Assembly (NCBI GenBank): GCA_944371905.1
Contig: CALVYA010000006.1
Coordinates: 5,358-69,357, forward strand
Reading direction: 5' to 3'
DNA length: 64,000 nt
From: an uncultured Bacilli bacterium
Lineage (GTDB): Bacteria > Bacillota_I > Bacilli_A > RF39 > UBA660
The notes below the pieces were generated by a model. That model made no database searches. It saw only the letters and a program-made list of their open reading frames with translations, and was not told the DNA's origin. This document shows, in pieces, positions 39,387-60,552 of this stretch. Position 1 is the stretch's first letter. The number at the start of each line of letters is the position of its first letter. The translations under genes and the position numbers were made by a program.

Positions 39387-41012
39387 TTATTTTATCTCTA
39401 TATCAACTGAATCAAACAGTTCATATATTTTATTATCAATAATTTCTTGATCTTTCCTAACTTCCTTTTTAGAATTATTATCAGTTAATACAATGTATTT
39501 ATCATCTATAATATTATATTTTTCATTATTATTCAATTTTTTTATATATTCAGTTCTTGCTTCATTCCATTCTGAATCTGAAATTGCTACTATATGATAG
39601 TTTAATTGCAAATAATCATTTAAAATCTTTTCTATTTTCTTATATTCTTCATTCAATTTATCTGCAAGGGACGAATAAAGATAATCTATAACTACATATT
39701 CATTACTTGCTACTACCGGAGATCCATCTAACAAATTACATATAATAGCACCATTTTCTTTATCAAAAGCATAATTTTTCAATTCTAACCATTTATTTTT
39801 TATATTATTTAAAAATTCTTTATTAGCATTAACAAAAGTATTATTGATTCTAATAGTTTTAAAATCGGCGTTTGAAAATTTATTTGTTTCTTTCAAATTT
39901 TCTTCTTTTACTATGGTATCATTTTCTAGTTTAATAGGATCAACACATTGCTCTTCTGTCTTTTTTTCAGAAAATATTTCCCGGGAAATATTTTCTATAT
40001 TATTCGCTATATCTAATAAACCCACTTCAAAAATTATTTTTTTACTAACAGAACTACTTTTCATTTTGTCATATATCTTGATCATTTCAGATAGTAAATC
40101 TTGCAATTCTTTATTTCTATCTTTCTTAATAAAAATTCTATCATCCAATTCTTTTATAATATCTTCTACTATATAAATTAAATCATAGTTATTTTGATAT
40201 AATGTATTCACTCGATCAATAGAATTGATAATATCTTTTGAAAGTATTAGATCAATCAGTGAAATAATCTCTTTTTTTGAAGGTTTATCACACACTGTTC
40301 TAACATCTTCCAATTCTATTTTGCTATTACAATAAGAATTAATTTTTTCTAATAAACTCAAAGCATCACGCATACATCCGTCAGAGGAAGAAATAATTTC
40401 ATCTATTGCTTCATTCGAAATTTCTATTTTTTCTTTATCACATATTTCTATAATTCTATTTTTCATATCGATAGAAGATATTTTTTTAAATTCTAGAACT
40501 TGACATCTAGACAATATAGTAGATGGTACTTTCTGAATCTCTGTTGTAGCTAATATAAATATAACATGAGATGGAGGCTCTTCTAATGTCTTTAACAAGG
40601 CATTAAAAGCGCCAATAGATAACATATGTACCTCATCAATAATATAAATTTTATATTTTAAAAAAGAAGGAACAATATTAATTTTACTTTTTAACTCTCT
40701 TATTTCATCGACTCCATTATTAGAAGCAGCATCAACTTCAATAATATCTACACATTCTTTTGACGAGGAATTAAGACACGAATCACATTGATTACAAGGA
40801 TTCAAATTGATTAAATTTTCACAATTAATTGTTCGAGCAAATATCTTAGCAATACTTGTTTTTCCAGTTCCCCTTGGTCCAGTAAATAAATATGCATGCG
40901 AAATATTATTATTATTAATAGCATTTTTTAAAATCGTAGTTATTACTTTCTGACCAGAAACTTCATCAAAATTAAAAGGTCTATATTTTCTATATATTGC
41001 TAGATGACTCAT
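39387..41012 (-). CDS. dnaX: DNA polymerase III gamma/tau
   Basis: YRKYRP, GPRGTGKT, DAASN, DEVH, SRC. Confidence 0.96.
   Translation of the reverse strand: MSHLAIYRKYRPFNFDEVSGQKVITTILKNAINNNNISHAYLFTGPRGTGKTSIAKIFARTINCENLINLNPCNQCDSCLNSSSKECVDIIEVDAASNNGVDEIRELKSKINIVPSFLKYKIYIIDEVHMLSIGAFNALLKTLEEPPSHVIFILATTEIQKVPSTILSRCQVLEFKKISSIDMKNRIIEICDKEKIEISNEAIDEIISSSDGCMRDALSLLEKINSYCNSKIELEDVRTVCDKPSKKEIISLIDLILSKDIINSIDRVNTLYQNNYDLIYIVEDIIKELDDRIFIKKDRNKELQDLLSEMIKIYDKMKSSSVSKKIIFEVGLLDIANNIENISREIFSEKKTEEQCVDPIKLENDTIVKEENLKETNKFSNADFKTIRINNTFVNANKEFLNNIKNKWLELKNYAFDKENGAIICNLLDGSPVVASNEYVVIDYLYSSLADKLNEEYKKIEKILNDYLQLNYHIVAISDSEWNEARTEYIKKLNNNEKYNIIDDKYIVLTDNNSKKEVRKDQEIIDNKIYELFDSVDIEIK
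39969..39996. promoter_or_regulatory. Noc-binding site (NBS) inside dnaX
   Basis: 28-bp perfect palindrome AGAAAATATTTCCCGGGAAATATTTTCT containing the NBS consensus ATTTCCCGGGAAAT. Confidence 0.85.
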
Positions 41013-41094
41013 TCAAATCCCTCCATAAATATTGTAACACAAATCACTAGTGCAATAAAGGTTTATTTTATGGTTATAATGATAAAACCTACGC

Positions 41095-41118
41095 AAAATA
41101 TTTCCCGGGAAATATTTT
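41095..41118. promoter_or_regulatory. Noc-binding site
   Basis: AAAATATTTCCCGGGAAATATTTT perfect palindrome. Confidence 0.88.
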
Positions 41119-41486
41119 ATCGAACAAAAATACGAACATTTTTATAAAAAAATAAAATACAATTTATAGAGAAAATATAAAAAATCTTTCAATCAAATGA
41201 AAATTTTTAAAAATGACATTTCTTATAAATTTAAAAGATATTATAGATAAAAAATAACAAACAAATCATTTGTTTAAACATATGTTTTTTTTTACTATTA
41301 ATCAATAACCTTAAGTCATACTTTATTGTATAAATATTATGATTATACATACAAAAATCAAAATTCTAAATGAATTTATTTTATTAATTCTTCCTATTTA
41401 ATATCTTGTATTTATTTTTATATTTTTTCACAATACAATTAAAATATTATCAATCATTTCATAAAATATTTTTATTATTAAACTAA

Positions 41487-41514
41487 ATAAAATATTTCCC
41501 GGGAAATATTTTAT
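41487..41514. promoter_or_regulatory. Noc-binding site
   Basis: ATAAAATATTTCCCGGGAAATATTTTAT perfect palindrome. Confidence 0.88.
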
Positions 41515-41587
41515 CAAACAAAAATACGTTCTTTTGTTTTGCTTTACCATTAACTTTGTTTAAACAAGATCTAACATTTAAAATTTT

Positions 41588-41603
41588 TGTTTCACGTGAA
41601 ACA
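41588..41603. promoter_or_regulatory. parS: parS site
   Basis: TGTTTCACGTGAAACA, exact consensus. Confidence 0.93.
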
Positions 41604-41748
41604 TAGTAGTTTTTAATATAGTTTTTTTAATTTACTGATATAAAATAACAATTATATTCTATATTTCAACAATTTCGTATTGTTAATTTATTTAAAAGTT
41701 TTCTATCACATCACTTTGGCTATTTTTTAATATGCAACCTTGCTTTAA

Positions 41749-41764
41749 CGTTTCACGTGAAACA
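41749..41764. promoter_or_regulatory. parS: parS site
   Basis: CGTTTCACGTGAAACA, one mismatch. Confidence 0.9.
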
Positions 41765-41853
41765 TCAAAATATTGTTATCTTTAATATATATTATTCTAC
41801 TAATTTATTTATATAAAGTAATAATTAAAATTTATATTTTAATAGTATTTACA

Positions 41854-41881
41854 AAAAAATATTTCCCGGGAAATATTTTTT
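41854..41881. promoter_or_regulatory. Noc-binding site
   Basis: AAAAAATATTTCCCGGGAAATATTTTTT perfect palindrome. Confidence 0.88.
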
Positions 41882-41915
41882 GTAATATTACTTTATTAGA
41901 TAATTTTATAAAAAA

Positions 41916-41931
41916 TGTTTCACGTGAAACA
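41916..41931. promoter_or_regulatory. parS: parS site
   Basis: TGTTTCACGTGAAACA, exact consensus. Confidence 0.93.
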
Positions 41932-41938
41932 TAATATA

Positions 41939-42388
41939 TTATCTTTTATTATTAAAAAATTTTTTTATAATACTTGAACATTCATCAGACATAATGCCTC
42001 TTTCTATTATAACTTGATGGTTATAGTTATTATTTTGTAATATTTGCTCTATTATTTTTCTGTTATCTGTAATATTTGAATCGCATCCATAAATAATTTT
42101 ACTTATTCTTGCCTGTTGAATAGCACTGGCACACATTGGACACGGTTCTAATGTTACATAAATAATGGTATCATTCAGTCTCCAATCTTTTAATTTTGCA
42201 CTTGCTTTTTCAATTGCAATTAATTCTGCATGACGTGTCACTAACTTTTCTTTATCTTTTTGATTATAAGCTGATGCAATTACTACATTATCTTTAACAA
42301 TTACAGCTCCTACTGGTATTTCATCTTCAATATCAGCAAATTTAGCTTGTTCTAAAGCTAATTTCATAAAATACTCGTTATTATACAT
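41939..42388 (-). CDS. tadA: tRNA adenosine deaminase
   Basis: EIPVGAV, HAE, TLEPCPMC; true start MYNNEY after GGAGTG. Confidence 0.92.
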   Translation of the reverse strand: MYNNEYFMKLALEQAKFADIEDEIPVGAVIVKDNVVIASAYNQKDKEKLVTRHAELIAIEKASAKLKDWRLNDTIIYVTLEPCPMCASAIQQARISKIIYGCDSNITDNRKIIEQILQNNNYNHQVIIERGIMSDECSSIIKKFFNNKR

Positions 42389-42407
42389 AATATCACTCCA
42401 TAAAAAA

Positions 42408-42482
42408 TAGCGCACATAAATAGGAATTGTTAAGGCTGCTATCTTCCGATCCTGACCTGGTTCCAATATATTTATTGCGCCA
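42408..42482 (-). ncRNA. ffs: Signal recognition particle RNA (small 4.5S type)
   Basis: Minus strand GCGCA...GAACCAGGTCAGGATCGGAAGATAGCAGC...TGCGC: domain IV with GGAA tetraloop and CAGG/AGCA loop, closing stem and U-tract. Confidence 0.85.
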
Positions 42483-42523
42483 TATATAGATTAATATATT
42501 TTTTTTATTTTTGCAAGTTTAAA

Positions 42524-48132: not shown

Positions 48133-48577
48133 ATTTTTTCGATATTCTTTTCGTTATCATAGCATCTAACATACCCGCTCTAAGTAATTGATTTTCAAAA
48201 GATAATTTAGAAATATCAAATTCTTTTTCTATGCCATTTTGAAATATCACTTTAGTATTATTACCTATTTTTTCTCTTTTTTTTACATAATTATGATTTA
48301 TCCAACAGCAATCTTCACTAGTATAAGATTTTGTCGGAAAAAAGATTATTTTTTCTGATTCTTCAATAAGAAGTGGTAATTTATAACTAAAATTTAATAT
48401 CTTCTGAGCAGCTTTAATTCTACCATCATATGTACTACCATAATACTCACAATTTTCTTCCATAATGTTAAAAGTAGAAGAAGGTATTAAATATTCTTTT
48501 GTTAATTCTATTACTTTCGTATTTTCTGAATCGATTGGTATTAATGCTATAGTTTCATCATTAATCTCATATGTCAT
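48131..48577 (-). CDS. comK: ComK-family competence transcription factor
   Basis: YEINDETIALIP, CEYYGSTYDGR, KLPLLI, IFFPTKS, CCWIN match the ComK family pattern. Confidence 0.82.
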   Translation of the reverse strand: MTYEINDETIALIPIDSENTKVIELTKEYLIPSSTFNIMEENCEYYGSTYDGRIKAAQKILNFSYKLPLLIEESEKIIFFPTKSYTSEDCCWINHNYVKKREKIGNNTKVIFQNGIEKEFDISKLSFENQLLRAGMLDAMITKRISKK

Positions 48578-48642
48578 AAAGTATCCCCCCATTTCTAATT
48601 TTTTGTAATTTAAATTACGGGGATTATTATAATTATATTTAT

Positions 48643-48681: not shown

Positions 48682-49803
48682 TTAATAAGTTCTTATAGGT
48701 AATACTAGTTGTTCAAGTGTATCATCTTCTTTTCCACGAATAATAATTGGTTTTATTTCTCCAAATAATGATATCTTAGCATAACTAGTTTCAAAAGATT
48801 TTAATGCATCCATCATATATTTAGCACTAAATGAAATCTTGATTTCTTGATCATTATCTTTTTCAATTTTCATTTTTTCTTCTACTCTACCTATTTCAGC
48901 AGAGGAAGATTTTACTAATAATGTATCTCCATTAACTTCAAAAGTAACAACATTTTTTTCCTTATCAGAAGTTAAAATACTAGCTCTATCTATAACATTA
49001 TATAATTCGTCCAAATTAGCTGTAAAACTTAAAATAGGATCTGTTGGCCATAAATTTGATGTATTTGGATAATTTCCATTAATTAATCGTGATTGAAATA
49101 ATAGATTATTATATTTAAACAATATTTTATTATTAAATATATGCATTTCTATATTATCCTCACCAAAATCTAATATTTTATTAAATTCTATTAAATTTTT
49201 ACTAGGTACTACAAAATTATAATTCTCTTCGGCTATTTTATCTAAATTTATTGTTTTTTTAGCCAAACGATAAGAATCTGTAGCATTACATTCCAATAAA
49301 TCCCCTACTATTTTAAAATTAATTCCTGTTAAAACAGGTCTTGATTCATCTGCTGATGTGGCAAATGAAGTTTGATTAATAAGACTGTGGAAAATTTTAT
49401 TATTAATATATATTATTTTTTTACTTTCTTCTAATGAAATATTAGGATATTCATTTTTGTTAATACCATTTAAATTAAATTCACTATTTTCAGTGTATAT
49501 AATTATTTTTAATTCATCTATTACTTCAATATTAATAAATTCGTCAGGTAACTTTCTTACAATATCTAATATGTACTTACCTTGAATAATAATACTACCT
49601 TCTTTTTCTATAGTCATATCTTCGTTTGTTGGTATAAATGTTTGAATAGTAATATCATTATCTGAAGCTGTTAATGTTAATCCGTTACTATTTAATTCGA
49701 ATTTAATTCCAGATAAAATGGGAATTAAGTTTTTAGTAGATATAGCTTTTGATACTTTGTTTAAACTTTCTAACAATATTTCTTTTTTAATTTTTAATTT
49801 CAT
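48682..49803 (-). CDS. dnaN: DNA polymerase III beta clamp
   Basis: PILSGI, SRPVLTG, ATDSYRLA, LVLPIR. Confidence 0.97.
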   Translation of the reverse strand: MKLKIKKEILLESLNKVSKAISTKNLIPILSGIKFELNSNGLTLTASDNDITIQTFIPTNEDMTIEKEGSIIIQGKYILDIVRKLPDEFINIEVIDELKIIIYTENSEFNLNGINKNEYPNISLEESKKIIYINNKIFHSLINQTSFATSADESRPVLTGINFKIVGDLLECNATDSYRLAKKTINLDKIAEENYNFVVPSKNLIEFNKILDFGEDNIEMHIFNNKILFKYNNLLFQSRLINGNYPNTSNLWPTDPILSFTANLDELYNVIDRASILTSDKEKNVVTFEVNGDTLLVKSSSAEIGRVEEKMKIEKDNDQEIKISFSAKYMMDALKSFETSYAKISLFGEIKPIIIRGKEDDTLEQLVLPIRTY

Positions 49804-49928: not shown

Positions 49929-51308
49929 TTATTTAATCTCTTTTTCTAGTATTTCTATAGTTTTAGACAAATCTTTATTTATTGAAATTTCTCTTTCAAT
50001 TTTTTCACAGGAATGCATTACTGTTGAGTGATCTTTTCCTCCAAATTCAATTCCAATTTTAGGAAAAGATTCGTCTGTTAATTTTCTACATAAGTACATA
50101 GCAATTTGTCGTGGAAATGATATATTAGAATTTCTTTTTTTAGATTTTAAATCATCAATAGATATTTTAAAATATTCTGCTACTACCTTTTGTATTTTGT
50201 TGATATCATTTTTTTCACTTATGCCTTTATTAATATAGTCTTTTAAAGCTTCCATTGCAAGATTTAAATCAATTTCTGCTCCCATAATGGTCGAATATGC
50301 AACTAATCTTGTAACAGAACCTTCCAGCATCCTAATATCACTACCTAAATTGGAAGCCATATATTCAATAACTTGCTCTGGAATATATTTATTAATAGCT
50401 TCCCCAGCAATTCTTTTTTTCAAAATAGCAACTCTAAGTTCAAAATCTGGGGGATATATATCAACAGGTAATCCCCAACAAAATCTCGTTCTTAAGCGAT
50501 CTTCTAGTATTTTTAAATCATCGGGAGAACGATCAGAAGAAATTATTATTTGTTTGTTATCACCATACAAATTATTAAATGTGTGAAAAAATTCTTTTTG
50601 TGTTTCTGTTGCACCACCTAAATATTGAATGTCGTCAATGATGAGAACATCAATATTTCTATACTTTTGCTTAAAGAAGTCAACATAACTAAAATTCGTT
50701 CCAGATTCATCTTTCTTATTAATTCCAATAAAATCAGATACAAATTGTTCACTAGTTACATATAAAACTTTTTTATCAGAGTTTTTAGTAATATAATTTC
50801 CTATTGCATGCATTAAATGAGTTTTACCCAGTCCACTGTTTCCATAAATAAATAACGGATTATACATTTTTCCAGGATTTTCCGCAACTGCAAGAGCAGC
50901 TGCATGAGCAAATTTATTACTATTTCCTACAATAAAATTATCAAAAGTATATTTTGAATTTAAGTTTGTATTTAAATATAAATGTTCATTATTATATAAA
51001 CTGTTACTGGTATTTTCCACATGATTGTGAATATTATTTTCTTCTTGAAATTCATCTTCAATGTCTTCTTTTAATAATAATTCAATTTCTATATTTTTTC
51101 CCGTTAATTCTAAAAATGAGTTTTGTAACATTTCCTTATAATTTAATAGGATATGATTTTTATGAATAGCATAAGGAACAATAATTCTAGCAGTTCCATT
51201 TTTTATGTCATACAATTCTGTTTCTTCAAACCAAGTTTGGAAGGACAATGAATTTATTTCTGATTTAATTTTTTCTAAAATGTTAGACCATAAAACAGAT
51301 GTATTCAT
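49929..51308 (-). CDS. dnaA: Chromosomal replication initiator
   Basis: NPLFIYGNSGLGKTHL, IDDIQ, RQIAMYL, GGKDHSTV. Confidence 0.98.
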   Translation of the reverse strand: MNTSVLWSNILEKIKSEINSLSFQTWFEETELYDIKNGTARIIVPYAIHKNHILLNYKEMLQNSFLELTGKNIEIELLLKEDIEDEFQEENNIHNHVENTSNSLYNNEHLYLNTNLNSKYTFDNFIVGNSNKFAHAAALAVAENPGKMYNPLFIYGNSGLGKTHLMHAIGNYITKNSDKKVLYVTSEQFVSDFIGINKKDESGTNFSYVDFFKQKYRNIDVLIIDDIQYLGGATETQKEFFHTFNNLYGDNKQIIISSDRSPDDLKILEDRLRTRFCWGLPVDIYPPDFELRVAILKKRIAGEAINKYIPEQVIEYMASNLGSDIRMLEGSVTRLVAYSTIMGAEIDLNLAMEALKDYINKGISEKNDINKIQKVVAEYFKISIDDLKSKKRNSNISFPRQIAMYLCRKLTDESFPKIGIEFGGKDHSTVMHSCEKIEREISINKDLSKTIEILEKEIK

Positions 51309-51339
51309 CCTTATCACTCCCCCCATTAATACGAATAAT

Positions 51340-51560
51340 TAATACAAATTCATTTTAACTTATCCTGTTGAAAAAATAAAGTAAAAACCGTAAAAAAAAG
51401 ATATCAACAAGTAATCAACAGAGTTTTCAACAAAAAATGTGCATAAATAATAAGAAAAAAATTACTTTTTCACATTTTCCACAAATTTTTATTCATAACT
51501 ATGAATAATGTTATCCACAAGTATGTTAATTTTGTTGATAACTATTTTTAAAATGAATTG
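51340..51560. other. oriC, rpmH-dnaA DnaA-box cluster
   Basis: Perfect TTATCCACA (51511) plus TTTTCAACA, TGTGCATAA, TTTTCCACA and TGTTGATAA; gene orientation switches here. Confidence 0.85.
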
Positions 51561-57714: not shown

Positions 57715-57795
57715 AATTTTACATTGTAAAATATTGAAAAATATTATATAATTTATTATAAAGTAAGAAAGAATAAAGTAGGAGGGTATAAATAT

Positions 57796-58794
57796 ATGGA
57801 AAATGAAATAGTTTATTTATACTTAGATGATATTATACCTAATAGATTTCAACCTCGTGAAGTTTTTGATGATAAAGCATTAAAAGAATTAGCAGTGTCC
57901 ATTAGAGAACATGGTGTTATTCAACCAATTATTGTTAGAAAAATAGGGACTAAATATGAAATAATTGCAGGAGAACGTCGTTATAAAGCTTCAACTATGG
58001 TAGGATTAACAAAAATTCCAGCTATAATTAGAAATCTTGATGATAAAGAAAGTTCTAAAGTAGCTCTTATTGAAAATTTGCAAAGAAAAGACTTAACTGC
58101 TATAGAAGAAGCAAGAACATATCAAAAAATTTTAGATATTGATAATATGACGCAAGAAGAATTAGCTAAAACTATGGGAAAATCTCAATCTGCGATTTCT
58201 AATAAATTGCGTTTATTAACTTTATCTAACAAAATACAAGACGCTTTATTGAATGAAAAAATATCAGAAAGACATGCTAGAGCTCTATTAAATGTTGATT
58301 CTGAAGAAGAACGTGATAGATTAACTGATTTAATTATTGAAAAACGTCTTTCTGTTAAAGATTTAGAGAATTTAGTAAAAGAAGAACAAAAGAAAAAAGA
58401 TGAGATTAAAACTTCATCGAGTGAAAAAGTAGAAAAAGAAGATACAGTAATTGATAATAGTAAAGTAGAAACTAAAAATAACGAAAATAATTATCCAAGA
58501 ATTAAATTAGATGATCTTTTAAAAGATATTATTAAGGAAGAGGATAAACCTTTAGAAAAAGAAAAAGATTCTGATATAGAAATGTTAGATTTATCAGAAC
58601 CTGATGAAAATTATTATTCTTTTAAAGGATTAAAGGAAGTTACTAACGCTAGTAATAGTATAGATAAATGTATAAATATGATAAGAGATACAATTAAAGA
58701 AATCGAAAACAAAGGATATCAAGTTAAATTTGATGAATTAGATTTAGAAAATAAGCATCGTTTTATTATAGAGATTGAAAAAAGAGAAGAATAA
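57796..58794 (+). CDS. noc: Nucleoid occlusion protein Noc (ParB paralogue) without N-terminal amphipathic helix
   Basis: PNRFQPR, GERR CTPase box, Noc-type HTH GKSQSAISNKLR and ERHARAL; located between rsmG and soj. Confidence 0.85.
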   Translation: MENEIVYLYLDDIIPNRFQPREVFDDKALKELAVSIREHGVIQPIIVRKIGTKYEIIAGERRYKASTMVGLTKIPAIIRNLDDKESSKVALIENLQRKDLTAIEEARTYQKILDIDNMTQEELAKTMGKSQSAISNKLRLLTLSNKIQDALLNEKISERHARALLNVDSEEERDRLTDLIIEKRLSVKDLENLVKEEQKKKDEIKTSSSEKVEKEDTVIDNSKVETKNNENNYPRIKLDDLLKDIIKEEDKPLEKEKDSDIEMLDLSEPDENYYSFKGLKEVTNASNSIDKCINMIRDTIKEIENKGYQVKFDELDLENKHRFIIEIEKREE

Positions 58795-58898
58795 AATAAA
58801 AGGTAGATTTTCTATCTTTTTTTATTGAAAAACATTTAAAAAAGTTATATTTTTTGATAGAATAGTATTTGTCAAGAATTATTGAAAAGGGTGATAGG

Positions 58899-59687
58899 AT
58901 GGGAAAGGTAATTTCTTTGGTAAATCAAAAAGGTGGAGTTGGAAAAACAACGACAAGTATTAATCTTTCAGCATCTTTAGCGGTATTAGGGAAAAATGTA
59001 TTATTAATCGATTTAGATCCTCAAGGAAATACAACGACAGGTATAGGTATTAATAAAGGAGATATCGATAAAAGTATTTATGATGTATTAATTGATCAAT
59101 GTTCAATCAACGAAGCTATTCTTGCCACTAGATATAAGAGATTATTTTTATTACCAGCTACTATCAATTTGGCTGGGATTGATATAGAATTGATGGAAAA
59201 GAGTAAAGATGAACCGACTTTTTCAAAAGGAAAACAATTAAAAATAAAACTAGATACAATAAAAGATAAATATGATTTTGTAATTATTGATTGTCCACCA
59301 TCATTAGGATTGATTACTACTAATGCATTGACAGCTTCAGATTCTGTTATTATTCCTGTTCAATGTGAATTTTTCGCTTTGGAAGGAATTATGCAGTTAT
59401 TGAATACTATTATGATGGCTCAGAAAAATTTAAATCCTAATTTAGATATCGAAGGAGTTTTATTAACTATGTTAGATTCAAGAACTAAATTGGGATTTGA
59501 AGTCGTAGAAGATATTAGGAAGTATTTTAAAGAGCGTGTTTATAATACAATTATTCCTAGATTAATAAGGTTAACAGAAGCTCCATCTCATGGTAAACCA
59601 ATAATTGCTTATGATCCAAAAAGTAAAGGAACAGAAGCTTACTTAAATTTAGCAAAGGAAGTGATTGAAAGAAATGGAAACAACTAA
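58899..59687 (+). CDS. soj: ParA/Soj ATPase
   Basis: NQKGGVGKTT, DLDPQGN, DCPPSLG, EAPSHG. Confidence 0.96.
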   Translation: MGKVISLVNQKGGVGKTTTSINLSASLAVLGKNVLLIDLDPQGNTTTGIGINKGDIDKSIYDVLIDQCSINEAILATRYKRLFLLPATINLAGIDIELMEKSKDEPTFSKGKQLKIKLDTIKDKYDFVIIDCPPSLGLITTNALTASDSVIIPVQCEFFALEGIMQLLNTIMMAQKNLNPNLDIEGVLLTMLDSRTKLGFEVVEDIRKYFKERVYNTIIPRLIRLTEAPSHGKPIIAYDPKSKGTEAYLNLAKEVIERNGNN

Positions 59688-60552
59688 AAGAAGAGCACTT
59701 GGTAAAGGATTAGAAGAATTGTTTAATAATGAGCAGTTAGATTTAAATAAATTTGAGAAACAAATAGTAGAATCAACACCAAAAGAAGAAATAATAGAAG
59801 TTAATATTAGTGATTTAAGACCAAATCCGTATCAACCAAGAAAAGTCTTTGATGAATCCAAATTGAATGAATTAGCTTCTTCTATTAAGGAGCATGGAGT
59901 TTTTCAACCAATAATAATTAAAAAAAGTGTTAAGGGATATGAAATAATTGCAGGAGAACGTCGTGTTAAAGCATCGGGTATAGCAGGGTTAGAAAAAATT
60001 CCTGCTATTGTTAGAAGTTTTACTGATGAAGAAATGATGGAAATAGCTCTACTTGAAAATTTGCAAAGAGAAAATTTAAATTCTATAGAAGAGGCAACAG
60101 CATATAAAAAGTTATTAGACAATTTATCTATTACACAGGAAGAGCTAGCTAATAAGTTAGGAAAAAGTAGAAGTCACATTACCAATATGTTAGGATTATT
60201 GTCATTACCTTCTGAAATTAAAGATATGATTAGTGAAAATAAAATTTCAATGAGTCATGCCAGAGTGCTAAGTAAAATTGAGGAAAAAGATAAAATATTA
60301 TCTTTAGCACAAAAAATAATAGATGAAAACTTAAATGTTAGAGAATTAGAAGAATTATCAAAAGATAAAGAAATCGTGAAAAAACATCATATGGAAAAGC
60401 ATAAAAATAATGAATATCATTATTTGGAAGAACAATTATGTGATAGGTTAGGCACAAAAGTAAAAATTAAATCTAATAAAATAGAAATTAAATTTAGTAA
60501 TGTTAACGATTTAAATAGAATATTAGAAATTTTAAGATTAACGGAAGAATAA
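59674..60552 (+). CDS. spo0J: ParB/Spo0J
   Basis: ALGKGL ParA-stimulating peptide, GERR, HTH GKSRSHITN. Confidence 0.95.
   Translation: METTKRRALGKGLEELFNNEQLDLNKFEKQIVESTPKEEIIEVNISDLRPNPYQPRKVFDESKLNELASSIKEHGVFQPIIIKKSVKGYEIIAGERRVKASGIAGLEKIPAIVRSFTDEEMMEIALLENLQRENLNSIEEATAYKKLLDNLSITQEELANKLGKSRSHITNMLGLLSLPSEIKDMISENKISMSHARVLSKIEEKDKILSLAQKIIDENLNVRELEELSKDKEIVKKHHMEKHKNNEYHYLEEQLCDRLGTKVKIKSNKIEIKFSNVNDLNRILEILRLTEE

Follow-up and report, generated by a model that had tools for sequence, protein, structure and literature searches.

The protein described here is a Noc-like protein encoded in a stretch of 64,000 nucleotides from an uncultured Bacilli bacterium (contig CALVYA010000006.1 of GenBank assembly GCA_944371905.1, positions 5,358 to 69,357), the whole of which is referred to below as the window. 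In the accepted model, the function of Noc requires simultaneous binding to DNA and to the membrane, the latter via an N-terminal helix. The protein of the window, which comes from a large lineage of uncultured gut Bacilli with a low content of guanine and cytosine (GC), hereafter the clade, is a Noc orthologue that fails this functional hallmark of the studied family and that carries a new linker module. The reading favoured here, to which a probability of about 0.5 is assigned, is that the protein would be a clamp dependent on cytidine triphosphate (CTP), loaded at Noc-binding sites (NBS), that does not bind the membrane directly and exerts its output through the recruitment of a partner by its linker.

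In Bacillus subtilis, Noc is loaded at NBS, closes with CTP and slides along the DNA (Jalal 2021). The truncated B. subtilis variant NocNΔ10 is located on the nucleoid, is largely cytosolic and off the membrane, and is non-functional, and a foreign amphipathic helix rescues it; an N-terminal helix was predicted in every Noc homologue examined in the same work (Adams 2015). In the literature that was searched, which leaves most subscription journals and supplements outside it, no mention of helix-less Noc orthologues was found, and the passages containing 'Noc' in a 2025 survey of the ParB-CTPase fold do not mention them.

In this study, the gene, its relatives and the candidate binding sites around it were analyzed computationally, following an earlier note on the window that had described a Noc with NBS-type recognition residues, a long acidic linker and no membrane-targeting helix, and that had suggested a different or ancestral role for it.

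Assignment to Noc

By its sequence, the protein is an orthologue that belongs with Noc, and not with ParB, in relation to the duplication that separates the two. The NCBIfam Noc model TIGR04285 aligns to residues 5–214 (positions 2–213 of 255 in the model) with 287.2 bits, and to the neighbouring Spo0J with 245.1 bits. Among solved structures, Noc chains come closest (207, 207 and 188 bits), with ParBs reaching 169.7 bits at most, and in the reciprocal comparison the Spo0J of the window matches B. subtilis Spo0J with 221.3 bits and the Noc chains with 169–172 bits. The two neighbours are 51% identical over 198 residues. Pfam recognizes ParB_N and HTH_ParB in the Noc-like protein and nothing beyond, ParB_C being found in Spo0J only. 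The features by which ParB/Spo0J is recognized were all missing from the Noc-like protein: no ParA-stimulating peptide is seen, position 173 is Q, position 201 is R and Pfam reports no ParB_C.

The canonical Nocs used for comparison were taken from chromosome pieces filed as plasmids (loci L081–L086 and L090). The plasmid-filed records with the order mnmE-mnmG-rsmG-noc-soj-spo0J (H1–H6, H8 and H9) are apparently mislabelled chromosome pieces. Maximum-likelihood trees were calculated from the N-terminal and DNA-binding domains of hand-chosen rows, which included 13 of the 150 representatives described below and eight of the 59 related loci with a Spo0J match. The tree of 32 rows splits 12 Spo0J rows from 20 Noc-type rows with support of 100/98 and unites the 14 clade rows in one group (98/93), and the tree of 38 rows places 16 ParB rows on one side (100/99) and again unites the clade (98/91). 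The gene order agrees with this assignment: 55 of 80 related loci show the full series mnmE-mnmG-rsmG-noc-soj-spo0J-DUF951-abgT-ychF, and in the remaining 25, most of which are apparently cut by the end of the locus or contig, the genes that are present follow the same order. An origin cluster including noc has been inferred for the ancestor of Firmicutes (Garcia 2021).

The N-terminal CTP-binding domain of the ParB/Noc type occupies residues 1–97 (57796..58086, plus strand; Pfam ParB_N at residues 6–96, 119.8 bits), and its boxes QPR, GERR and ENLQR are preserved, with P15–R21, G59–R62, E93, N94, Q96 and R97 invariant in 60 of 60 aligned relatives. It is followed by the helix-turn-helix DNA-binding domain at residues 98–198 (58087..58389, plus strand; Pfam HTH_ParB at the same residues), which reads GKSQSAISNKLRLLTL...ISERHAR where the neighbouring Spo0J reads GKSRSHITNMLGLLSL...ISMSHAR. 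The residues Q131, K137, T142 and R159 correspond to positions 173, 179, 184 and 201 in the numbering of Jalal 2020. Q131 and K137 do not vary among the 60 relatives, and the conservation of R159 is 90% or more; among the 107 of 150 representatives that matched the search pattern (43 did not), Q173 is found in 107, K179 in 106, R201 in 106 and K184 in one. The NBS specificity is switched by Q173 and R201, and a single lysine at either 179 or 184 suffices to license the switch (Jalal 2020). The retention of Q173, K179 and R201, together with the conservation of the sites described below, indicates a reader of the NBS type with putative NBS binding. The Noc-type recognition residues described in the earlier note are thus present at these three positions, although the T at position 184 had been overlooked. 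The lack of the ParA-stimulating peptide, also described there, was borne out, as no (L/F/I)G(K/R)G(L/F/I) motif was seen on reading the translation, whereas Spo0J has RALGKGLEELF.

Position 201 of Spo0J deserves a separate remark. The Spo0J of the window carries S at this position (ISMSHAR), and of 59 matching sources of the clade (L001, L010, L016, L042 and others), 43 have G there, 15 have S and one has A. G201 has been described as 'absolutely conserved' in ParB orthologues, and in a mutational scan S or T at 201 was tolerated in parS binders and was common in dual-specificity variants (Jalal 2020).

The named members of the clade are annotated as 'ParB/RepB/Spo0J family partition protein' or 'ParB family chromosome partitioning protein', so that RefSeq-style naming overlooks the clade as Noc. 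A protein-atlas lookup of one homologue (P0024) returned only 'ParB HTH/ParB N-terminal domain' clusters. Two further proteins were noted. In one homologue (P0181, 221 residues), an N-terminus of the Spo0J kind (RRALGRGLEELF, SNPYQPR) precedes a body resembling Noc (GKSQSAVSNKLRLLTL, ERHAR), which breaks off abruptly; this protein probably results from a chimeric assembly or from recombination of the two paralogues. The other, from Acetoanaerobium noterae (L089, 2971–3738), is a ParB-type protein of 255 residues encoded directly after rsmG, in the position of noc; it has R173, G201, a ParB-like C-terminus and a short N-terminus without LG(K/R)GL, and is a different, 'orphan' kind of ParB.

Absence of the N-terminal helix

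The gene (57796..58794, plus strand) appears in the list of open reading frames with an ATG start and 332 codons plus a stop, and its product begins MENEIVYLYLDDIIPNRFQPR. The good ribosome-binding site described in the earlier note was confirmed on reading the sequence, as a Shine–Dalgarno GGAGGG lies at 57781..57786 on the plus strand, 9 nucleotides upstream of the ATG. An in-frame TAA stop is located at 57727–57729, and an N-terminal extension of the frame is unlikely because none of the 22 in-frame codons between this stop and the ATG is ATG, GTG or TTG. A consensus scan found a promoter-like TTGTAA-17-TATAAT at 57724..57752 on the plus strand (10 of 12 consensus matches, a pattern match only), which falls within this upstream stretch. 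An extension from rare ATT or ATA starts (57730–57795) was considered and rejected, since it would overlap the promoter-like site and the stretch is not conserved, the upstream stop of relatives lying as few as 15 codons before the motif.

The extent of the missing segment was obtained from the solved-structure search. Residues 4–196 align with residues 3–196 of 7ng0_A, an NΔ26 construct of Geobacillus Noc (207.4 bits), and with residues 27–220 of the Noc chain 7nfu_A (206.9 bits), and residues 3–196 align with residues 28–223 of the Noc chain 7ol9_A (188 bits). Because residues 3–4 of the query pair with residues 27–28 of the full-numbered Geobacillus and B. subtilis Nocs, about 25 N-terminal residues are absent, and the CTP-binding domain starts at approximately the same point as the engineered construct. 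The residues that are missing correspond to the 10-residue membrane-targeting helix α1, helix α2 and an 8-residue loop of Noc (Jalal 2021).

The short N-terminus is shared by the relatives. A word-indexed homologue search returned at least 8000 candidates (E ≤ 0.001), and all 17 close homologues that were inspected, of 120 listed, start within 3–6 residues of the VYLYLDDIIPNRFQPR block. When genomes were scanned, one for each species, 607 pattern matches were obtained, of which at least 595 were confirmed by tblastn, and the best 80 were kept as the related loci; all of these are records of 'Bacilli', 'Tenericutes' or 'Erysipelotrichaceae' that are uncultured or assembled from metagenomes, including Candidatus Onthousia and Clostridium sp. 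CAG:417. In all 80 loci and in the window, an in-frame stop lies 15–61 codons ahead of the Pro in PNRFQPR, and the longest possible N-terminus is 14–25 residues, save in two loci where TTG codons would give 39 and 41 residues and an internal ATG yields 18. In 78 of these 81 sources, the start that gives 14–21 residues has a Shine–Dalgarno-like core 4–13 nucleotides upstream. A wider representative search yielded 84,004 matches (E ≤ 0.001), from which the best 150 representatives at 50% identity were used (240–542 bits). With starts as called by the upstream gene finders, 9–21 residues precede the box-I Pro in 142 of these, 23–53 residues in six, and the pattern was unmatched in two; no MK..FSRLFG pattern was found among the longer N-termini that were inspected.

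In comparison, six Nocs of Bacillales and Lactobacillales carry a helix of the MK..FSRLFG type, with 27–47 residues before the Pro; they start with MKNTFSRLFGFG in B. thuringiensis, MKSAFSRFFNLK in P. megaterium, MKKPFSKLFGLK in S. epidermidis, MPFSRLFGKK in L. monocytogenes, MKEQFSRLFGI in Paenibacillus and MALSFFNKKK in Latilactobacillus. The helix is also lacking in Clostridioides difficile, whose RefSeq noc (WP_003429292.1; L084, 2986–3771, NZ_CP149720.1) encodes 261 residues that begin MEDKRVMEIPIEDVVPNPYQPR, with 15 residues before the Pro. The C. difficile protein has the residues QKKR, a Noc-type C-terminus and 351.5 bits with TIGR04285, which is a pass. No functional study of this helix-less Noc was found in the literature search. 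Nothing was drawn from a Noc-like gene of Subdoligranulum (QKTR), as its start is uncertain and its branch is long and of odd composition.

The claim that the protein has no membrane-targeting helix therefore holds for the window, and the absence is kept in all 80 related loci and, among the best 150 representatives, in 142. However, the protein is not a singular oddity: helix-less Noc is common and is confined neither to the window nor to the clade, and it includes a RefSeq noc of C. difficile that passes the curated model.

Search for a substitute helix

Amphipathic segments were scored using the Fauchere-Pliska scale and the HeliQuest discriminant D. This discriminant combines the hydrophobic moment μH and the net charge z as D = 0.944 μH + 0.33 z, with thresholds of 0.68 and 1.34. 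In the positive control, five of the six helix-bearing Nocs reach a D of 0.85–1.72 on their first residues; in the sixth, that of Latilactobacillus, the top 11-residue segment (1.2) is at residue 13 and not at the MALSFF start. The best N-terminal 11-residue segment of the window protein has a D of −0.6, and over 147 representatives the corresponding median is −0.22, with none of the 147 above 1.34.

It might still be supposed that the membrane element has moved within the protein, so that the segment KLDDLLKDIIK (residues 237–247), or another segment of the linker, binds lipid and the Bacillus mechanism is retained. This segment has the highest hydrophobic moment of any 11-residue segment in the protein (μH 0.83, z = 0, D = 0.78), its motif is present in most of 32 close homologues, with LDSLL-like variants across the family, and the genes for MreB, MurA, PBP1A and sporulation point to a walled rod in which occlusion would be relevant. 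However, its flanks are acidic, so that windows of 14 and 18 residues around it have a net charge of −3 and D < 0, and the family consensus (A)DLDSLL(N/K) is itself acidic, in linkers whose net charge is below zero in all 147 representatives. Cationic amphipathic segments are not enriched in the linkers, whose best D has a median of 0.78 as compared with 0.90 in shuffled linkers (147 representatives), whereas the helix-bearing Nocs show basic linkers and cationic N-termini. A relocated membrane helix is thus considered improbable.

The second amphipathic region of the protein, residues 286–303, is a helix of the C-terminal domain, and no amphipathic tail follows it, as the protein ends ...FIIEIEKREE. 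Neither the two ends of the window protein nor its linker thus showed a cationic amphipathic helix. An internal or C-terminal amphipathic helix had been named in the earlier note as the finding to look for against its own claim; the window protein holds no cationic substitute, and the linkers are not enriched over shuffles. Direct lipid binding by the Noc-like protein is, from these scores, unlikely.

The acidic linker and the C-terminal domain

The DNA-binding domain is followed by an acidic, fast-evolving linker at approximately residues 199–280 (58390..58635, plus strand), which appears as an insertion relative to the Noc model in the TIGR04285 alignment. Residues 197–285 contain 26 Asp and Glu and 17 Lys and Arg, with a net charge of −9. 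The length and charge of this segment separate the clade from the other Nocs. The linker has 9–17 residues and a net charge of +1 to +7 in five Bacillales Nocs, 15 residues and −2 in C. difficile, and 13 residues and +4 in the Subdoligranulum protein, as against 81–243 residues and −8 to −22 in the window and three further clade members, and 88–547 residues (median 219) in the 147 representatives, of which all 147 are negative (median −26). What distinguishes the clade from other helix-less Nocs is therefore a long, net-acidic linker of 81–547 residues, and the long acidic linker of the earlier note proves to be family-wide and to carry conserved short motifs.

Beyond the linker, residues 281–332 (58636..58791, plus strand) form a C-terminal domain of the Noc type, matching TIGR04285 positions 207–255; the last 67 residues alone match the same positions (E = 4e-4, 19.8 bits). 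The Spo0J C-terminus searched alone matched no family, and hhalign found no similarity between the Noc-type C-termini and the Spo0J C-termini of the clade (probability 0.2%). A solved-structure search with residues 228–332 alone gave a match at chance level only (E = 1.6).

Within the linker, two stretches are conserved more than their surroundings. The first, YPRIKLDDLLKDIIK (residues 233–247; 58492..58536, plus strand), was recognized by eye in most of 32 close homologues and contains the most amphipathic 11-residue segment; the second, seen in aligned columns of 60 relatives, consists of DIEMLDL (260–266) followed by NYYSFKGL (272–279) (58573..58632, plus strand). The identity to the window protein in the 32 close homologues is 93% in the N-terminal domain and 86% in the DNA-binding domain, falls to 11% in residues 197–230, rises to 43% in the stretch of the first motif (231–248), is 17% in residues 249–258, 63% in the stretch of the second motif and NYYSF (259–281), and 56% in the C-terminal domain. 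Read by eye, (Y)P(R/K)I(N/D)F(D/E)(D/E)LLK is found in most of the 32, and (E/D)(I/V)E(T/M/V/L)LD followed by a DDNYYSFxGL-like segment in all of them. Motifs resembling IE(T)LD and LD(S)LL are seen again in distant members. In counts with a reduced alphabet, [LIVM][DE][ST][LIVM][LIVM] is present in 35 of 147 linkers as compared with 6.7 in shuffles; (K/R)FF(N/Q)F is present in 14 as compared with 0.1 (16 as compared with 0.1 with N/Q in front), and FLPNF in 15 as compared with 0.2. Short acidic–hydrophobic motifs in a fast-evolving, disordered segment would be typical of partner-binding sites. IEMLDL might also be taken as a candidate β-clamp-binding motif, and the acidic motifs as candidates for a likeness to the SSB tail.

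The same identities bear on the idea that the protein is a decaying or functionless remnant left after the loss of the N-terminus. A score below the TIGR04285 cut-off and a hypervariable linker could be taken in this sense, but the two folded domains are 93% and 86% identical across the close homologues, the open reading frames are intact, the Shine–Dalgarno-like core is present in 78 of 81 sources, synteny is kept and NBS are maintained, which leaves decay scarcely credible.

NBS and parS sites

Four perfect matches to the NBS sequence ATTTCCCGGGAAAT are present in the window, together with one match with two mismatches (shuffle mean 0.19; none of 100 shuffles reaches five), and a search with the 12-base core allowing up to one mismatch recovered the same four sites. 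One perfect site lies inside dnaX (39976..39989; dnaX by NCBIfam), and the pattern search and repeat analysis place the other three in the dnaX-tadA intergenic spacer (41100..41113, 41494..41507 and 41861..41874; sites are given without strand), each within a 24 bp palindrome AAAATATTTCCCGGGAAATATTTT. The same spacer holds three parS sites (41588..41931; repeat families D3 and D5; shuffle mean 0.00), of which those at 41588–41603 and 41916–41931 are perfect and that at 41749–41764 has one mismatch. In this spacer of 926 bp (41013–41938), about 10 kb from the replication origin (oriC), three NBS and three parS are thus interleaved, and it looks like a mixed loading array for Noc and ParB. The gene tadA (41942–42491, minus strand) adjoins this spacer; its longest open reading frame has a TTG at 42466 and overlaps a match to the signal recognition particle RNA at 42393–42491, and the true start is probably further downstream, as the NCBIfam match begins at residue 26.

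Among the relatives, 14 perfect NBS occur in 12 of the 80 loci (1,370,920 bases), and those that were checked against gene coordinates lie within the mnmE-mnmG spacer. In L016, L021, L022, L041, L066, L067 and others, the NBS is about 2.7–2.9 kb upstream of noc. No NBS was found in the mnmE-mnmG spacer of the window itself or within its oriC, and no perfect parS core was found in the 80 related loci, which stop short of the region equivalent to dnaX-tadA. The clustering of NBS near the origin that the earlier note had assumed is therefore seen in the window, but the 14 sites of the relatives, spread over 12 of the 80 loci, include NBS that stand alone.

Two other roles were considered in the light of these sites. 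The first is that the main task of the protein would be to restrain DnaA-dependent replication initiation, as for Staphylococcus aureus Noc, through origin-proximal NBS and a protein contact of the linker. Such a role has a precedent, as S. aureus Noc controls initiation through a target that is unknown and was proposed to be protein-specific (Pang 2017), and in the window about 10 kb separate the NBS cluster from the DnaA-box cluster (51438–51541) and from the switch in GC skew. However, no NBS lies inside oriC, the single NBS of relatives lies between mnmE and mnmG, and the analogy is loose in that S. aureus Noc has a membrane helix, as in S. epidermidis Noc; initiation control is considered unlikely. 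The second is that of an additional centromere-binding partition protein, which would join Soj and Spo0J at a centromere of mixed NBS and parS and would serve chromosome segregation in place of division control. The three NBS and three parS interleaved in 926 bp fit this idea, as does the position of the gene directly upstream of soj-spo0J, but the LG(K/R)GL peptide of Spo0J is absent from the Noc-like protein, its C-terminal domain shows no sequence relationship to that of Spo0J, which makes mixed dimers unlikely, and the interleaved array is seen in the window only, the 80 loci stopping short of the equivalent region. A partition role is accordingly regarded as quite improbable.

Genome context

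The window has a GC content of 26.6% and spans the origin of replication, with dnaN at 48685–49803 and dnaA at 49932–51326 (both on the minus strand), a DnaA-box cluster at 51438–51541 and a sign change in GC skew between 48 and 52 kb. Downstream of the Noc-like gene, the next gene is soj (58869..59687, plus strand), encoding a ParA-type ATPase identified by Pfam AAA_31 and CbiA and by conserved synteny, followed by spo0J (ParB; 59665..60552, plus strand), which is identified by Pfam and NCBIfam, has the LGKGL peptide, R173 and a ParB_C domain, and has B. subtilis Spo0J as its best solved relative (221 bits). The organism also encodes MreB, MurA, the class A penicillin-binding protein PBP1A, SpoIIID, SpoIIQ, SpoIIR, SpoVT, YabP, YabQ, YabG and GerQ, from which it is a walled spore-former, probably of rod shape, and one in which it matters that division is coordinated with the nucleoid. 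A ComK-family protein (PF06338, 143.7 bits) is encoded at 48134–48592 on the minus strand, between dnaN and recF in the origin gene cluster.

Discussion

In the mechanism that is favoured here, dimers of the Noc-like protein would load at TATTTCCCGGGAAATA sites, bind CTP and close into sliding clamps, which would spread on origin-proximal DNA in the manner of ParB and Noc. The clamps would be without the element that the CTP switch frees toward the membrane, so that they would not insert themselves into it. The acidic linker would serve as the output module, its short motifs most likely recruiting a protein partner to Noc-coated DNA; a linker that acts as a steric or electrostatic brush would be less likely. 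Since helix-less Noc is conserved, its output would be independent of the membrane, or else the envelope would be reached via a partner. The candidate end results would be division inhibition, origin positioning or replication control.

Several points weigh against this reading. The TIGR04285 score of 287.2 bits is below the curated cut-off of 315, and the controls reach 319–381 bits; the shortfall coincides with an insertion of about 70–80 residues, because the C-terminus alone matches model positions 207–255. At position 184 the protein has T, unlike the K of canonical Noc, and in approximately 400 Noc orthologues positions 179 and 184 are both 'almost invariably' lysine (Jalal 2020). Residues 237–247 may contribute a weak membrane contact, as their D of 0.78 lies in the range that HeliQuest classes as possible. 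The linker motifs could make intramolecular contacts with the C-terminal domain in place of partner sites, and acidic or N/Q-rich low-complexity linkers can stem from compositional drift in a genome with 26.6% GC. Furthermore, we infer CTP binding, clamp formation, NBS binding and the absence of membrane binding alike from the sequence.

The comparison with known systems illustrates what has been kept and what has changed. With the Nocs of B. subtilis and Geobacillus thermoleovorans (TIGR04285; 7NFU, 7NG0, 7OL9 and 6Y93), the window protein has in common the CTP domain, Q173, K179 and R201, the Noc-type C-terminus, the lack of a ParA peptide, the rsmG-noc-soj-spo0J position and an identical NBS core. 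It differs from them in lacking the N-terminal segment of about 25 residues (α1, α2 and loop), in having T184 in place of K184 and in having an acidic linker of at least 80 residues in place of a basic one of 9–17 residues. The natural protein begins within about three residues of the same point as the Geobacillus construct NocNΔ26ΔCTD (7NG0), which also lacks its CTD (C-terminal domain), and whereas NocNΔ10 of B. subtilis is a non-functional truncation, the truncated form is here the conserved wild type of a large clade, with a linker added. C. difficile Noc resembles the window protein in its short N-terminus, Noc-type C-terminus and gene order, but has a short linker (15 residues, net −2) and passes TIGR04285 at 351.5 bits. 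ParB/Spo0J has the same fold, CTP boxes and clamp architecture, but differs in R173 (for Q), G or S at 201 (for R), the LGKGL peptide and a different C-terminal domain. A precedent for a CTP clamp of the ParB type that acts via a protein partner (KorA), and not via ParA or the membrane, is provided by KorB of RK2; it is a distant sequence match (8qa8) with a different DNA site, a plasmid context and no acidic linker, so that the analogy is one of logic only. RicO of S. aureus, which tethers the origin to the membrane, is likewise site-specific on origin-proximal DNA, but is an unrelated protein with a C-terminal amphipathic helix, which the Noc-like protein does not have.

The ancestry of the helix-less state was considered using the same trees. 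With the root set among the ParBs, the clade is in both trees the sister of a group of C. difficile Noc and the helix-bearing Nocs; support for this group is 93/80 in the tree of 32 rows, and for the equivalent bipartition 95/86 in the tree of 38 rows, with a weak inner order. The helix-bearing Nocs form one group with 89/82 for five rows in the smaller tree and 61/88 for six rows in the larger, where the group occurs in 60% of bootstrap trees. As the helix-bearing Nocs are grouped and both the clade and C. difficile are helix-less, a single gain of the helix suffices, as against at least two losses. This weakly suggests that the helix-less state is ancestral, from one secure clostridial row, long C. 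difficile, S. epidermidis and Subdoligranulum branches, and a gene tree that departs from the species tree and in which a shared low GC content could draw the Noc of the clade toward its Spo0J. The ancestral role raised in the earlier note thus gains a little from the single gain that suffices in two trees, and is held back by the single clostridial row and the long branches. It is tentatively possible, if doubtful as a whole, that the membrane helix was a later invention of Bacillales and Lactobacillales, that the original Noc was an NBS-loaded CTP clamp independent of the membrane, and that this ancestral clamp gained here a long acidic, disordered hub whose short acidic–hydrophobic motifs dock a protein partner on origin-proximal DNA, near ParB at a mixed NBS/parS centromere.

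If this last view is true, nucleoid occlusion or origin handling in these bacteria would proceed via a protein adaptor and not via lipid. A very large and diverse natural group of Nocs, and that of C. difficile, are without the helix and yet keep the DNA reader, and the clade also keeps the CTP boxes and the NBS, all strongly conserved. Either a membrane-independent activity of Noc may have been overlooked, or the membrane or divisome would be reached via a partner, for which the conserved motifs of the linker would offer a concrete handle in locating it.

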